Shown here in pieces: positions 4,321 to 7,947 of a stretch of DNA of 7,947 nt. Within the stretch, counting starts at the first letter, position 1; each line of letters starts with the position of its first letter. Source of the stretch: a virus. Its lineage: Duplodnaviria > Heunggongvirae > Uroviricota > Caudoviricetes. The translations under genes and the position numbers were made by a program. Location: the IMG/VR virus record IMGVR_UViG_2713896907_000004, positions 1-7,947 of that record; one strand, written 5' to 3'. The notes under the pieces were generated by a model. That model was not told where the DNA came from, did no database searches, and saw only the letters and a program-made list of their open reading frames with translations.

Positions 4321-4393
4321 TTTCGTACTTTCAGTACGCATTATGATTGAACTGAAAGTTTTTGCAAGTGCTTTAGTATCGTACTCATGGTTC
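4321..4393. promoter_or_regulatory. OR-like operator/promoter region (PR leftward, PRM rightward)
   Basis: Minus-strand PR: -35 TTGCAA (plus 4362-4367), 16-bp spacer, -10 CATAAT (plus 4340-4345). Operator-like sites: cgtACTttcAGTacg palindrome (4324-4338), gaACTgaaAGTt (4349-4360), weaker taTCGTACtc (4377-4386). Possible PRM -10 TAGTAT (4374-4379) ends 7 nt before the cI ATG, which lacks a Shine-Dalgarno. Confidence 0.5.
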
Positions 4394-5094
4394 AGAATGA
4401 AAAAGTGCGCAAAGAATTCGCCCAGCGGCTAGCGCAAGCCTGTAAAGAAGCTGGTCTTGATGAACATGGTAGGGGGATGGCCATAGCCCGTGCCCTTTCT
4501 CTTTCGTCCAAAGGCGTTAGCAAATGGTTTAATGCTGAGTCTTTACCGCGTCAGGAAAAAATGAATGCGCTTGCGAAATTTCTAAACGTTGATGTTGTTT
4601 GGCTTCAGCACGGCACTTCGTTAAATGGAGCGAATGATGAAGATACTCTTTCATTTGTTGGCAAATTAAAAAAAGGGTTAGTGCGCGTGGTTGGTGAGGC
4701 AATTCTTGGTGTTGATGGTGCCATCGAGATGACCGAAGAGCGCGATGGGTGGCTCAAGATTTATAGCGATGATCCAGATGCCTTTGGTCTTCGTGTGAAA
4801 GGAGACAGCATGTGGCCCAGAATAAAATCAGGAGAATATGTACTCATTGAGCCTAACACCAAAGTATTCCCGGGTGATGAGGTGTTTGTCAGAACCGTTG
4901 AAGGACACAACATGATTAAGGTTCTTGGCTATGACAGAGATGGAGAATACCAATTTACAAGCATTAACCAGGACCACAGGCCTATAACGTTGCCTTATCA
5001 TCAAGTAGCAAAGGTGGAGTATGTGGCTGGTATTCTGAAGCAATCTCGTCATCTGGATGACATCGAGGCAAGGGAGTGGCTGAAAAATTCGTGA
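4387..5094 (+). CDS. cI: CI-like prophage repressor (N-terminal HTH, C-terminal S24 LexA-like peptidase)
   Basis: Track ORF 4387..5094(+), 235 aa. HTH near the N-terminus (GMAIARALSLSSKGVSKWFN). C-terminal GDSMWP serine motif and downstream Lys (NMIKVLG) typical of the S24 autocleavage domain. Divergent from cro with the operator region between. Confidence 0.9.
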   Translation: MVQNEKVRKEFAQRLAQACKEAGLDEHGRGMAIARALSLSSKGVSKWFNAESLPRQEKMNALAKFLNVDVVWLQHGTSLNGANDEDTLSFVGKLKKGLVRVVGEAILGVDGAIEMTEERDGWLKIYSDDPDAFGLRVKGDSMWPRIKSGEYVLIEPNTKVFPGDEVFVRTVEGHNMIKVLGYDRDGEYQFTSINQDHRPITLPYHQVAKVEYVAGILKQSRHLDDIEAREWLKNS

Positions 5095-5170: not shown

Positions 5171-6217
5171 ATGTCAGCGATTGATCAACCTGCGCAATAT
5201 GTTATCAAGTCAGAAGACGACTTTGTATCTTTTGTAACAGAAATGCTCGGAAGGAAGGATATCGACTCAAGCGACTTCACATTCCCTAGCGTAGTTTTCA
5301 GTGGATGGCCAAAGATCAATATTAATGTAAAAGGCGATCCAAATAGATATAATTCTTCATTGACTGCGTCAATGCTTTTTGGTATGGCAGAGCTTACGCA
5401 TGAAATACAAAAAGCATTTACGGTAGTCAGTCACAGCACTCATAATCGGCAGAAGCTAAAAGATGCAGAGAAAGGTTTGCTGGATATTGTCTACCGAATA
5501 AGCGAAGGCTCAAGCCAAGCGGATGGTGACTCAGATCCGATTGTAAACGGAGTGGTGACAGTGTTAACTCAAGCGATAGGCAAAATGACAGGAAGGCAAG
5601 CACTATGCGCCGTCGCCGCTATCGTCTTAGCTGCCAGCACGGTAGGCTATAAGTGGATCAATGAGTACTACGAAACACAGCGACATGACCAAGATTCTCA
5701 GGTGCAATTGGTGGAAAAAAGCACCAAAGCGGTAAACGAAGCACAAGACAATGTGCTCAAGTTGTTGATTAGCGGTCAAACAAACATTAGCAGAGAGGTT
5801 CTGGCTCACGGCGAGGATGGTAAAAGCAAGTTGCTTAAAAAGCTTGCTCAAGACTCGTCAGTTGAGAAGGTAACAATTGGTCAGAGAGTGGTAAATAGAG
5901 AACAGTTGAATACCTTAAACCAAAGGCAATCAATTGATCGAAAAAAGGAAACCAGAAGAGATAACTTTTATGTCACGGGCGTTCGTCGCTCGGGAGAAAC
6001 AAATCAGGACATAAATATTGACGTCACAAGGGTTTCAAATGGTGAATCTTTCACCATAAAAACCTCAGCCGACATAACATCTACTGATGAGCTTCTTGAG
6101 TTTTTGAATGCTGTAGCCAAAGAATCAACTGTTGAAATTTCATACCTAGAGGTTGTAGAAAATGGACACATTTCAACAGGACAATTGATAAATATATTCC
6201 CCAGCGAACCAGAGTGA
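5171..6217 (+). CDS. Hypothetical membrane protein (348 aa) in the rexAB-equivalent slot; candidate exclusion/defence moron
   Basis: Track ORF 5171..6217(+). AAGGA 6 nt upstream of the ATG. Same strand as cI, 76 bp downstream, with no terminator between. Visibly AT-richer than neighbours. One central hydrophobic segment (ALCAVAAIVLAASTVGY) and a charged Q/K/E-rich C-terminal half. No family recognised. Terminator follows. Confidence 0.8.
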   Translation: MSAIDQPAQYVIKSEDDFVSFVTEMLGRKDIDSSDFTFPSVVFSGWPKININVKGDPNRYNSSLTASMLFGMAELTHEIQKAFTVVSHSTHNRQKLKDAEKGLLDIVYRISEGSSQADGDSDPIVNGVVTVLTQAIGKMTGRQALCAVAAIVLAASTVGYKWINEYYETQRHDQDSQVQLVEKSTKAVNEAQDNVLKLLISGQTNISREVLAHGEDGKSKLLKKLAQDSSVEKVTIGQRVVNREQLNTLNQRQSIDRKKETRRDNFYVTGVRRSGETNQDINIDVTRVSNGESFTIKTSADITSTDELLEFLNAVAKESTVEISYLEVVENGHISTGQLINIFPSEPE

Positions 6218-6225
6218 TGCACTCC

Positions 6226-6254
6226 AAACCCGGCCTCAGCGCCGGGTTTTCTTT
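6226..6254 (+). terminator. Rho-independent terminator after the 348-aa gene
   Basis: Stem aaacccggc (6226-6234) / gccgggttt (6241-6249) with loop ctcagc, followed by TTTTCTTT (6247-6254). Begins 9 nt after the TGA stop. Confidence 0.7.
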
Positions 6255-6354
6255 GCCTCACGTTCGCCCTCCCATATTTAATAGCCGCAAATGTGGTAAA
6301 CCGCGAACCAACTCACCAGCAATACCCCCTCCAACTACAGACCAATCTGCAGCA

Positions 6355-6418: not shown

Positions 6419-6464
6419 TTTCGTACCAATAGTTCTTGATAATATCGAACTATTGGTTCATTAT
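6419..6464 (+). promoter_or_regulatory. OL/PL-like region: operator motifs co-linear with OR plus a PL candidate
   Basis: TTTCGTACcaatAGTtC (6419-6435) and GAACTattgGTT (6447-6458) match the OR motifs TTTCGTACtttcAGTaC and GAACTgaaaGTT in the same order with near-identical spacing. 11-bp perfect inverted repeat accaatagttc / gaactattggt (6425-6435 / 6447-6457). PL candidate: -35 TTGATA (6436-6441), 17-bp spacer, -10 CATTAT (6459-6464). Confidence 0.45.
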
Positions 6465-6681: not shown

Positions 6682-6801
6682 ATGCTGGAAATTATCACCA
6701 ACCCAATTCTCGGTGGGGCAATCATCACTTTCGCAATCGGCATCGGATTCACTATCTGGTCTGAAGTAGATGACTGGATGTGGGAGCGCAAAAACAAATA
6801 A
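6682..6801 (+). CDS. Small hydrophobic peptide (39 aa, single predicted TM helix) in the N leader
   Basis: ATG at 6682 with GGAG 8 nt upstream. Product MLEIITNPILGGAIITFAIGIGFTIWSEVDDWMWERKNK: hydrophobic core then a charged Trp-rich tail. Inside the longer track ORF 6616..6801. Lies between nutL and N. Confidence 0.4.
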   Translation: MLEIITNPILGGAIITFAIGIGFTIWSEVDDWMWERKNK

Positions 6802-6841
6802 TAATCGACACACATTCATGTGTGTCTTCACGGAGGTCATC

Positions 6842-7150
6842 ATGACGGTTATCGTATACGGAAAATCAACATTTGCAGGAAATGCCAAAACTCGCCGTCA
6901 TGAGCGGCGCAGAAAGCTGGCTATCGAGCGTGATTCCATCTGCAACATCATCGATTCGATCTTCGGCACAGACAGTGAGGAAGCTGTTCAGGAAGAACCG
7001 AGAAAGCGTTTAAGCCTTTCTGAAAAAGCAATATCACTCGGCATCATTAGTAAATCAAATACAGATGCGAATGGCGGAAGCGTTTGCCTGCCCGAAGTTG
7101 CACTGTATGCTGCTGGTTACAGGTCAATGAAATCAATTACGGCGAGATAG
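6842..7150 (+). CDS. N: N-like transcription antiterminator (P22 gene 24 type, arginine-rich motif)
   Basis: Internal start of track ORF 6770..7150 at Met 25 (ATG 6842), with GGAGG 5 nt upstream. N-terminus MTVIVYGKSTFAGNAKTRRHERRRKLAIERD carries the arginine-rich boxB-binding motif of P22 N as recalled. Cognate boxB present in both nutL and nutR. Confidence 0.85.
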   Translation: MTVIVYGKSTFAGNAKTRRHERRRKLAIERDSICNIIDSIFGTDSEEAVQEEPRKRLSLSEKAISLGIISKSNTDANGGSVCLPEVALYAAGYRSMKSITAR

Positions 7151-7419: not shown

Positions 7420-7552
7420 CCACGCTCATGCTGGTTTTTAATGACATAAATAACCCTATTTACTACCGCAAGCCACGCAGTGAAATGGGTGTGACTTGTG
7501 TTGGTCGCCAGAAAATGAAATTAGGCAGCAAACCACTTATTTGAGGTGATAT

Positions 7553-7639
7553 ATGGAAGAAGAATTTGAAGAGTTCGAAGAGCATCCGCAGGATGTGATG
7601 GAACAATACCAGGACTATCCGTATGACTACGACTATTGA
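7553..7639 (+). CDS. Very small acidic peptide (28 aa), possibly coupled to the next ORF
   Basis: ATG 7553 with GAGGTGA 4 nt upstream. Hand translation MEEEFEEFEEHPQDVMEQYQDYPYDYDY. Overlaps the start of the next ORF by 17 nt. Could be coding or only a coupling leader. Confidence 0.3.
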   Translation: MEEEFEEFEEHPQDVMEQYQDYPYDYDY

Positions 7640-7823
7640 TAAAAATCAATGGTGTGGACAATTCAAACGATGCAATGGATGCAAGCTGCAATCGGAATGC
7701 ATGGTTAAGCCTGAAGAAATGTTTCCTGTAATGGAAGATGGGAAATATGTCGATAAATGGGCAATACGAACTACGGCAATGATTGCCAGAGAACTTGGTA
7801 AACAGAAAAACAAGGCTGCCTGA
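7623..7823 (+). CDS. Hypothetical Cys-rich small protein (66 aa, CxxxxxCxxCxxxxxC)
   Basis: Track ORF 7623..7823(+). Start overlaps the preceding acidic ORF. Four Cys in CGQFKRCNGCKLQSEC suggest a zinc ribbon. Followed by a terminator. Confidence 0.5.
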   Translation: MTTTIDKNQWCGQFKRCNGCKLQSECMVKPEEMFPVMEDGKYVDKWAIRTTAMIARELGKQKNKAA

Positions 7824-7842
7824 TGGTGGCCTTTATTTTTGG
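7813..7842 (+). terminator. Rho-independent terminator after the N-downstream small genes
   Basis: Stem aggctgcc (7813-7820) / ggtggcct (7825-7832) with two G-U pairs, loop tgat (contains the TGA stop), followed by TTATTTTTGG. Confidence 0.5.
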
Positions 7843-7947
7843 CATAAACAACAGAATAAACACAGCACTGTGTATTCATTCCAACGAGTGAATACACGGA
7901 GCAATGTCGCTCGTAACCAAACAGGAGCCGACTTGTTCTGATTATTG

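Follow-up and report, generated by a model that had tools for sequence, protein, structure and literature searches.

Judged by its gene content, the window, by which we mean the whole stretch of 7,947 nucleotides that was analysed, is a lambdoid immunity and early region. Pfam assigned a DnaB-type helicase, an O-like protein, cII and a cro-like protein to the - strand, and the following elements were found on the + strand.

4387-5094, + strand: cI-like repressor (Pfam)
6770-7150, + strand: N (Pfam PF25694)
7623-7823, + strand: ral, encoding the antirestriction protein Ral of 66 aa (Pfam PF11058, E = 1.2e-47)
7812-7841, + strand: terminator-like hairpin (consensus scan hit 7812-7833) of 9 pairs, two of them G.U, with loop TGAT and then TATTTTT

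Since the + strand runs upstream in the order cI-like repressor, N and ral, it is the sense strand of the pL operon. The gene order at the locus matches that of lambda, and ral is annotated as such in lambda, phage 21, DE3 and E. coli prophages. In BLAST, the last 500 bases of the window matched lambda, phage 21, DE3, HK544, Sf6 and many Stx phages at 95-99% identity, and they were matched at the same identity in 2,250 of 5,426 complete E. coli genomes. The terminator-like hairpin straddles the ral stop codon (7821-7823) and occurs at the same site in a relative, L001; its T-tract is the joint where the different upstream genes of other phages meet the conserved module. Direct comparison with lambda (J02459) placed the inverted repeat studied here in the ral-ea10 intergenic region and identified the locus as the ral-PreS-tL2a module of lambda. 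The intrinsic terminator tL2a with its U-tail, the Hfq-binding module, is present in L001 and L148, the closest relatives, as GCCCTCC....GAGGGCTTTTTT. The next protein gene of close relatives is a 56-aa ORF that begins 227 nt after the ral stop, beyond tL2a and ~103 nt past the window end.

Several further features of the region were observed. An ORF of 348 aa (5171-6217, + strand) with no Pfam or PADLOC match separates the cI-like repressor from N, at the place where lambda has rexAB; PADLOC and Pfam likewise gave no matches for the neighbouring unknown ORFs. The same protein (WP_001272876.1) is found at this position in a few E. coli prophages, and its gene could serve in exclusion or defence and be expressed in the lysogen. 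Right after this ORF, at 6214-6261, comes a hairpin that on either strand is more stable than any other local hairpin of the window (AAACCCGGC...GCCGGGTTT; -22.7 on + and -25.8 on -) and that may terminate transcription in both directions before the pL region. Between that hairpin and the N region, an 11-bp perfect inverted repeat at 6425-6457 (ACCAATAGTTC, 11 nt, GAACTATTGGT) could be an operator or a nutL-related element. The frame 7422-7544 (+ strand), ~300 nt downstream of the intact N, ends in ...YYRKPRSEMGVTCVGRQKMKLGSKPLI and a stop, which is the C-terminal end of a phage-21-type N and looks like a relic of module exchange; homology to phage 21, DE3 and similar phages begins at ~7452. 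A very acidic 31-codon ORF (7546-7639, + strand; MEEEFEEFEEHPQDVMEQYQDYPYDYDY) overlaps the ral start, and its counterpart is a small ORF at lambda 34271-34357, confusingly labelled as a second 'ral' in J02459.

Downstream of ral, the end of the window carries the following elements.

7854-7868, + strand: module leader GAATAA...GCAC, in which GCAC (7865-7868) is the 5' half of a lower stem
7870-7878, + strand: left repeat arm gtgtattca, read directly in the window
7870-7881, + strand: hairpin 5' arm GTGTATTCATTC, containing the left repeat
7882-7885, + strand: tetraloop CAAC, which varies in relatives (CAAT, CAGC, CAGT, TTCT, TACG, TGCG and others)
7886-7897, + strand: hairpin 3' arm GAGTGAATACAC, containing the right repeat
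7889-7897, + strand: right repeat arm tgaatacac, with the 10-nt spacer ttccaacgag between the arms
7899-7902, + strand: GAGC, the 3' half of the lower stem and the 5' end of PreS
7899-7947, + strand: PreS/LPR1 nt 1-49 of 88 (48/49 identity to lambda; 0 matches in 200 shuffles)
7907-7913 with 7925-7932, + strand: the 5' stem of PreS itself
7908-7917, + strand: boxA-like CGCTCGTAAC (PreS nt 10-19), resembling the antitermination boxA (lambda CGCTCTTA)
7932-7947, + strand: start of the PreS seed, CTTGTTCTGATTATTG, within which the window ends

The 9-bp perfect inverted repeat at 7870-7897 with its 10-nt spacer is exactly as an earlier, sequence-only reading of this DNA had described it, and the terminator which that reading placed just upstream corresponds to the terminator-like hairpin and T-tract at 7812-7833. 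A bare 9-bp perfect repeat at such spacing is not rare. With spacers of 3-20 nt, dinucleotide-shuffled windows contained 0.8 such repeats on average and 47% of the shuffles had at least one, and the real window has five distinct ones. The full hairpin element, on the other hand, is far beyond chance. In + strand RNA the stem extends inward by U-A, U.G and C-G up to the CAAC loop, and outward by U.G and C-G and then, past an A.A mismatch, by C-G and G-C. The helix is thus 12-14 bp long, with 12 Watson-Crick or G.U pairs at 7870-7881/7886-7897 plus U7869.G7898 and C7868-G7899, and the 14-bp form has two G.U pairs. As + strand RNA, the 48-nt segment 7860-7907 reached -22.3 kcal/mol compared with -7.8 +/- 2.1 kcal/mol in shuffles (z = -6.9; 0 of 200 as good), and the hairpin ranks second in stability among all + strand 48-nt segments of the window. 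It is identical to lambda 34013-34040, and the T-to-A substitution of the window relative to lambda at 7864 falls in the outer, non-conserved lower stem.

We compared the hairpin with familiar elements of early phage transcripts. It does not have the form of an intrinsic terminator, as the stem is followed by GGAGCAATG and not directly by a U-tract. Nor is it a nut site made of boxA and boxB, as it precedes the boxA-like CGCTCGTAAC and does not come after it; its stem is 11-12 bp, its loops are variable and not GNRA-like, and the same hairpin class accompanies different N types in lambda, 21 and Stx phages. A LexA box or other operator at the palindrome was rejected by eye.

The sequence following the hairpin belongs to a known small RNA. 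LPR1, renamed PreS, is an Hfq-bound lambda sRNA that was found by RIL-seq, lies between ral and ea10 and ends at the terminator tL2a (Silverman et al., bioRxiv 10.1101/2024.10.31.621285). It appears as bands of ~88 and ~68 nt in the lytic cycle only, from 10 min after cI857 inactivation, and the dominant form is the 68-nt species, which is ~20 nt shorter (bioRxiv 10.1101/2024.10.31.621285). Hfq binding and regulation of dnaN and alaS have been reported for lambda PreS, which activates dnaN translation and supports phage replication (bioRxiv 10.1101/2024.10.31.621285). The cloning, in vitro transcription and deletion primers of that study fix the 88-nt PreS as GAGCAATGTCGCTCGTAACT to GAGGGCGATTTTTTA; the full-deletion arm ends in ...GAGTGAATACACG, which is the repeat end plus one G, and the seed mutants M1 and delta-seed map to TTGTTCTGATTATTGG (bioRxiv 10.1101/2024.10.31.621285). 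Primers P810, P1103 and P969 of its Table S5 are the source of our lambda lpr1 reference sequence. These primers place +1 at GAGCAATG, which is window position 7899, 2 nt after the repeat end. This published +1 may be a cloning choice made from the ~88-nt northern band, so that the 5' end is fixed only to within a few nt. The sole mismatch of the window to lambda PreS nt 1-49 is T20C, and the covered portion of the seed is identical to that of lambda.

On the strength of this sequence match, the downstream "new gene" is the sRNA PreS/LPR1 and not a protein gene. The suspicion that a new gene starts at the window edge was therefore correct as to the start, at 7899, and incorrect if a coding sequence was meant. 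Extending the locus through its relatives, as had been suggested for identifying the downstream gene, shows the remainder of PreS and then tL2a, and a protein gene follows only at the 56-aa ORF outside the window. The stretch with GGAG (7898-7901) and CAGGAG (7922-7927) does follow the repeat as had been noted. Both motifs are internal to PreS, GGAG being its 5' end and CAGGAG the 3' arm of its own stem, and their interpretation as ribosome-binding sites fails.

Some further points concern PreS itself. The boxA-like segment lies within the 20-nt 5' part that is the most conserved of the PreS family, yet this part is trimmed off the 68-nt form. We rejected, as a conserved feature, the masking of the PreS seed UUGUUCUG (7933-7940) by CAGAAUAA (7852-7859) in the precursor; this pairing closes a predicted three-way junction, and its probability was ~0.5 only downstream of ral and 0.01-0.2 elsewhere. 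A Rfam scan of the extended locus and of the P22-type locus found nothing near any gathering score. KilS and RalA, RNAs of the Rac prophage, were rejected as PreS homologues, as they show no sequence similarity and only an analogous position; KilS is an annotated sRNA upstream of kilR in the Rac early-left operon (E. coli K-12; L126 7406-7503). The 'Pas' sRNA of another preprint is unrelated to PreS.

To follow the hairpin across phages, IMG/VR was scanned for the PreS core, then for the second hairpin type and then for a diverged 5' signature. Among 144 lambda-type PreS loci (counts that, like those below, are inflated by relatedness and by the choice of search patterns and overstate the number of independent observations), 129 had the exact window hairpin, 6 had it with one substitution, and 8 had an unrelated hairpin, TATAGCAGATT-TACG-AGTCTGCTATG, in the same place. 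An intact hairpin was accordingly present in 143 of the 144 loci, which bears out the conservation of the palindrome in related prophages, a check that had been named beforehand. The exception is HK022 (AF069308; L125 ~1440-1500), in which IS903 sits inside the left arm and leaves only tcattccaacgagtgaatacac before an intact PreS, making this phage a natural hairpin-disruption mutant. Over the whole PreS family, from lambda to P22, a hairpin of -8 kcal/mol or lower lies directly upstream in 326 of 328 loci, most of these hairpins being at -13 kcal/mol or lower, and 5.7% of random 40-mers of the same loci reach -12 kcal/mol.

The stems fall into at least six classes of unrelated sequence (A, A', B, B', C, D, E), which are combined variously with different sRNA bodies; class A is the class of the window and of lambda. 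Diverged PreS-like RNAs were found in the P22-like Salmonella phages P22, epsilon34 and ST64T. These RNAs have their first 20 nt in common with PreS, and a similar seed, but other bodies and other terminators. The one of P22 lies between orf87 and gene 17, and those of P22 and epsilon34 are each preceded by a hairpin of another sequence class. They are unannotated and lie at L336 1172-1300 (P22, BK000583, with the predicted RNA at about 28839-28740 on the complement) and L337 873-1003 (epsilon34), with the related seed GUUCUGGUUA.

Exact PreS matches were also seen in genome contigs of Pseudoxanthomonas, Shewanella, Kitasatospora, Neobacillus, Pseudomonas and others. These matches in unrelated genera, several of them on low-coverage contigs of ~48.4-48.5 kb, look like lambda DNA contamination, and the genome-contig scan therefore says little on host range.

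We aligned 20 distinct hairpins with MAFFT (alignment A2). No arm indels were found among them, and the arms are 11 bp in all classes other than A. Paired cells made up 93.5% of this alignment, compared with 25-46% when the partner was slid by 1-3 columns. Changes on both sides with pairing kept were seen at 9 of 16 pairs, one pair shows five pair types, and the covariation score of 0.606 (0.136 in shuffles) was reached by 0 of 500 shuffles. The variation is distributed unevenly along the helix. At its base, G7865-C7902 and C7866-G7901 are present in 20 of 20 variants, and C7868-G7899, which includes PreS nt 1, is present in 19 of 20, with one U.G. At the loop end, U7880:A7887 is kept in all 20 distinct variants and U7879.G7888 in 16. 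The eight pairs in between are hypervariable, and in most contexts the lower stem consists of only three conserved pairs. Before the hairpin, GAATAAGCAC or GATGCAC is found in nearly all upstream contexts; GAATAA and GCAC are common to contexts that are otherwise unrelated, and GAATAA mostly holds the stop codon of the upstream gene. Even with the counts inflated, several independent stem replacements that keep pairing, length and position are hard to explain without structural constraint. In one IMG/VR locus (L059), CACT has become CTCC, whereby the A.A mismatch and the U.G wobble are lost together and an 18-bp perfect helix results; this variant looks like quasi-palindrome correction by template switching.

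The strand on which the structure matters can be judged from its wobble pairs. The G.U pairs of the sense strand are kept in all classes, and in three hairpin classes the sense RNA folds more stably than its complement (-22.3 vs -18.7, -14.9 vs -12.8 and -15.1 vs -11.5 kcal/mol). The retention of G.U pairs and the greater stability of the sense strand therefore point to an RNA on the pL transcript rather than to a DNA site. The sequence-only reading had left the choice between a protein-binding site and an RNA stem. Of these, an RNA stem on the + strand is the most likely, and a protein site on DNA is unlikely, because the half-sites have been replaced wholesale with pairing kept and because the G.U pairs work only as + strand RNA.

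We then considered which nuclease such a stem could serve. In the minimal E. coli RNase III substrate, 11 bp of helix separate the cut from the loop; a distal box, U:A and then U:G with a stringent requirement for U:G, lies next to the loop and a proximal box of 4 bp beside the cut. One such set is enough to specify the site, and the loop sequence does not matter (Pertzev and Nicholson, PMC1540722). The proximal-box rule asks for G:C at pb1, A:U or U:A at pb2, A:U at pb3 and A:U or U:A at pb4, and in the minimal substrate a G:C pair is a binding antideterminant at pb2 and a catalytic antideterminant at pb4 (PMC1540722). In vivo, the positions between the two RNase III cuts are paired, usually with at least one G-C (PMC6212723). 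The window hairpin has the required helix of at least 11 bp between scissile bond and loop, with exactly 11 bp from the distal box to the base pair 7870:7897. It also has the distal box, as U7880:A7887 and U7879.G7888 with both U on the 5' strand, the strand orientation of 'UA/UG' being inferred from the pair notation in PMC1540722. Under the RNase III rule, cuts are predicted between 7869 and 7870 and between 7899 and 7900, the latter 1 nt from the published PreS +1, and the near-invariant C7868-G7899 would fall between the two, in agreement with the in vivo G-C rule. The proximal box of the window hairpin, which is of class A, departs from the consensus, with U:A at pb1, G7872:C7895 at pb2, U:A at pb3 and G7870:C7897 at pb4. 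Classes B-E have A/U or U.G at proximal-box positions 2-4; class B, the class of P22 and mEp043, has a better proximal box than class A, and class C is without the U.G pair of the distal box. Because class A violates the proximal-box consensus, we do not file the window hairpin as an established RNase III site; from its sequence determinants, it may be a candidate that works like one.

Taking these results together, we propose that the inverted repeat is the DNA image of a stem-loop that would form in the pL transcript between the ral message and PreS. PreS would have no transcription of its own and would be cut from N-antiterminated pL read-through RNA, N-modified polymerase being able to read through terminators. 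A scan for sigma-70-like promoters found zero sites at 7500-7947 on either strand and in L001 3200-3700. Considering these zero promoter-like sites and the expression of PreS after pL derepression, PreS is most simply explained as a processed piece of the pL transcript. RNase III would cut the base of the 11-bp upper helix, at about 7899/7900, and this cut would set where the 88-nt PreS begins. PreS would then carry a 5'-monophosphate, which could promote its trimming to 68 nt, and the upstream ral message would keep the hairpin at its 3' end, as protection against 3' exonucleases. That the reported 5' end lies inside the conserved helix argues for a double-strand-specific cut. We consider it quite probable that the 5' end of PreS is set on pL read-through transcripts by the hairpin, acting as a signal for RNA processing or as an RNA boundary. 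The assignment to RNase III specifically is tentative, at somewhat short of even odds. For the explanation as a whole, in which the hairpin is the processing signal of PreS and RNase III is the likeliest nuclease, we estimate a probability of roughly 0.55.

Among other explanations, the hairpin might be a passive structural boundary that blocks 3' exonucleases or insulates the folding of PreS, with RNase E or another single-strand endonuclease cutting elsewhere. Intra-operonic Hfq sRNAs of enterobacteria are mostly released by RNase E, and the dominant 68-nt PreS, which begins ~20 nt further in, is consistent with processing of this type. The departure of class A from the proximal-box consensus favours this explanation, and so does the position of the hairpin within a few nt of the upstream stop codon in many contexts and its constancy while the upstream genes differ widely. 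However, the reported 5' end is at C7868-G7899, which is part of the conserved helix rather than of any A/U-rich single-stranded segment, and CG↓GAG is unlike the motif preferred by RNase E, RN↓WUU. A passive boundary also leaves the U:A/U:G pairs, the constant 11-bp arms and the invariant GCAC/GAGC flanks unexplained; we regard it as the main rival, possible but unlikely. A palindrome without RNA function, either a recombination "boundary sequence" or a palindrome maintained by template switching that travels with PreS, would account for the annotation of the stretch as boundary sequence bsq4 in Sf6, for the mosaic breakpoints at the hairpin edges and for the shuffling of hairpin classes and sRNA body types. 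Template switching can also yield compensatory changes without selection, of which the double change in L059 is typical. Against this, the position relative to PreS +1 is fixed in 326 of 328 loci (related loci retrieved by chosen patterns) without arm indels, the G.U pairs are kept and not corrected, the sense strand is always the more stable one, and the top pairs are conserved where the middle is hypervariable. We consider this explanation improbable.

Two readings take the repeat as DNA or as part of a protein gene. If PreS had its own promoter overlapping the palindrome, the hairpin region would be promoter or operator DNA, and by eye a weak -35-like TTGGCA is present at 7839-7844. No usable -10 is suitably spaced from 7899, the promoter scan was empty on either strand, PreS is absent in lysogens and present within 10 min of pL derepression, and the putative -10 region would differ completely in hairpin classes B-E; such a promoter is very unlikely. 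The remaining reading, in which the repeat is an operator bound by a protein, or else an RNA stem that controls how a protein gene at the edge is translated with GGAG/CAGGAG as its ribosome-binding site, can point to an ATG at 7904 which follows GGAG and opens a short frame (MSLVTKQEPTCSDY...; 29 codons in lambda, as read from the lambda sequence). We rejected this small ORF. The GGAG is only 2 nt from the ATG and is paired in the lower stem, and the C-terminus and stop of the frame vary in relatives because the frame runs through the variable terminator. In addition, the stretch is the experimentally validated sRNA PreS, the half-site sequences are not conserved across hairpin classes, and the next annotated protein gene lies well past the window, at the distance given above. 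We find this reading scarcely credible.

Returning to the hairpin as a processing signal, the hypervariable middle of its stem invites a further thought. With its invariant ends, fixed 11 bp and a middle of 8 bp that has been replaced repeatedly and shuffled independently of the sRNA body, the hairpin might be a specificity cassette and more than a generic stem for processing. In that case, diversifying selection could act on a sequence-specific reader of the stem, be it a defence system or a factor of phage or host origin; another possibility is that the stem adjusts how fast RNase III releases PreS in each phage and hence the timing of PreS relative to N antitermination. We regard the cassette as a long shot.

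The locus itself is already known. It is that of lambda PreS, an sRNA described in 2024 in a sequence known since 1982, and the window is another copy with two substitutions (T20C, and T-to-A at 7864). For the window, the analysis is accordingly mostly clarifying, as it identifies a copy of a known lambda locus and not a new protein gene or operator. What is apparently undescribed in the literature consulted is the conserved, covarying hairpin abutting the PreS 5' end and its role, the match of this hairpin to RNase III determinants, and the module of hairpin plus sRNA in P22-like phages. Nowhere does the PreS preprint use the words stem, hairpin, cleavage, RNase E or RNase III (bioRxiv 10.1101/2024.10.31.621285). 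PreS, for which no route of biogenesis has been described, is among the earliest phage sRNAs found to reprogram a function essential to the host, namely dnaN translation. If the hairpin is a processing signal, PreS output would be tied to N-antiterminated early-left read-through and to a host nuclease, by the same logic as lambda sib retroregulation, and this would explain why PreS is found only in the lytic cycle. Besides lambda and Stx phages, P22-like Salmonella phages have the module, and there it is unannotated. The model predicts cuts at lambda 34011/34010 and 34041/34040 and a dependence on the U.G pair.

In comparison with known systems, the closest is the lambda PreS/LPR1 locus, with which the window shares 48/49 nt and the placement of the sRNA after ral and before the following pL-operon gene; close relatives carry the same terminator, tL2a, shortly past the window end. 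The window differs from it in having only the 5' 49 nt and the two substitutions named above, and neither the immunity region nor the N of its prophage is that of lambda. On the one hand, the hairpin resembles RNase III hairpins (T7 R1.1 and the minimal uR1.1; the lambda N-leader and sib) in lying between units of a phage early transcript, in having a helix of 11-13 bp from cut to loop with a U:A/U:G distal box at the loop end, and in its predicted 3'-side cut at the helix base beside an internal mismatch. The hairpin would stay on the upstream RNA, as it does at intercistronic sites of the T7 R1.1 type, where it serves as a 3' stabiliser. On the other hand, the window stem has two inhibitory proximal-box G:C pairs and a short lower stem, its cleavage is predicted, and the product is an Hfq sRNA and not an mRNA. 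As a small Hfq-binding RNA in an early pL-like operon of a lambdoid prophage, DicF of the dicB operon in Qin is like PreS. DicF is reportedly processed out of the operon transcript, with an intrinsic terminator at its 3' end, and its 5' end is made by RNase E. It shows no sequence similarity to PreS, there was no DicF match in the Rfam scan, and we know of no conserved 5'-flanking hairpin described for it. The boundary sequence bsq4 of Sf6 extends over the same conserved DNA without coding function, starting with the hairpin and reaching tL2A; the idea behind bsq4 is a recombination joint, whereas the stretch described here has a validated sRNA and a covarying hairpin. The hairpin and its sRNA represent no new type of system and would belong with the intercistronic processing hairpins of phages and the operon-embedded sRNAs such as DicF.
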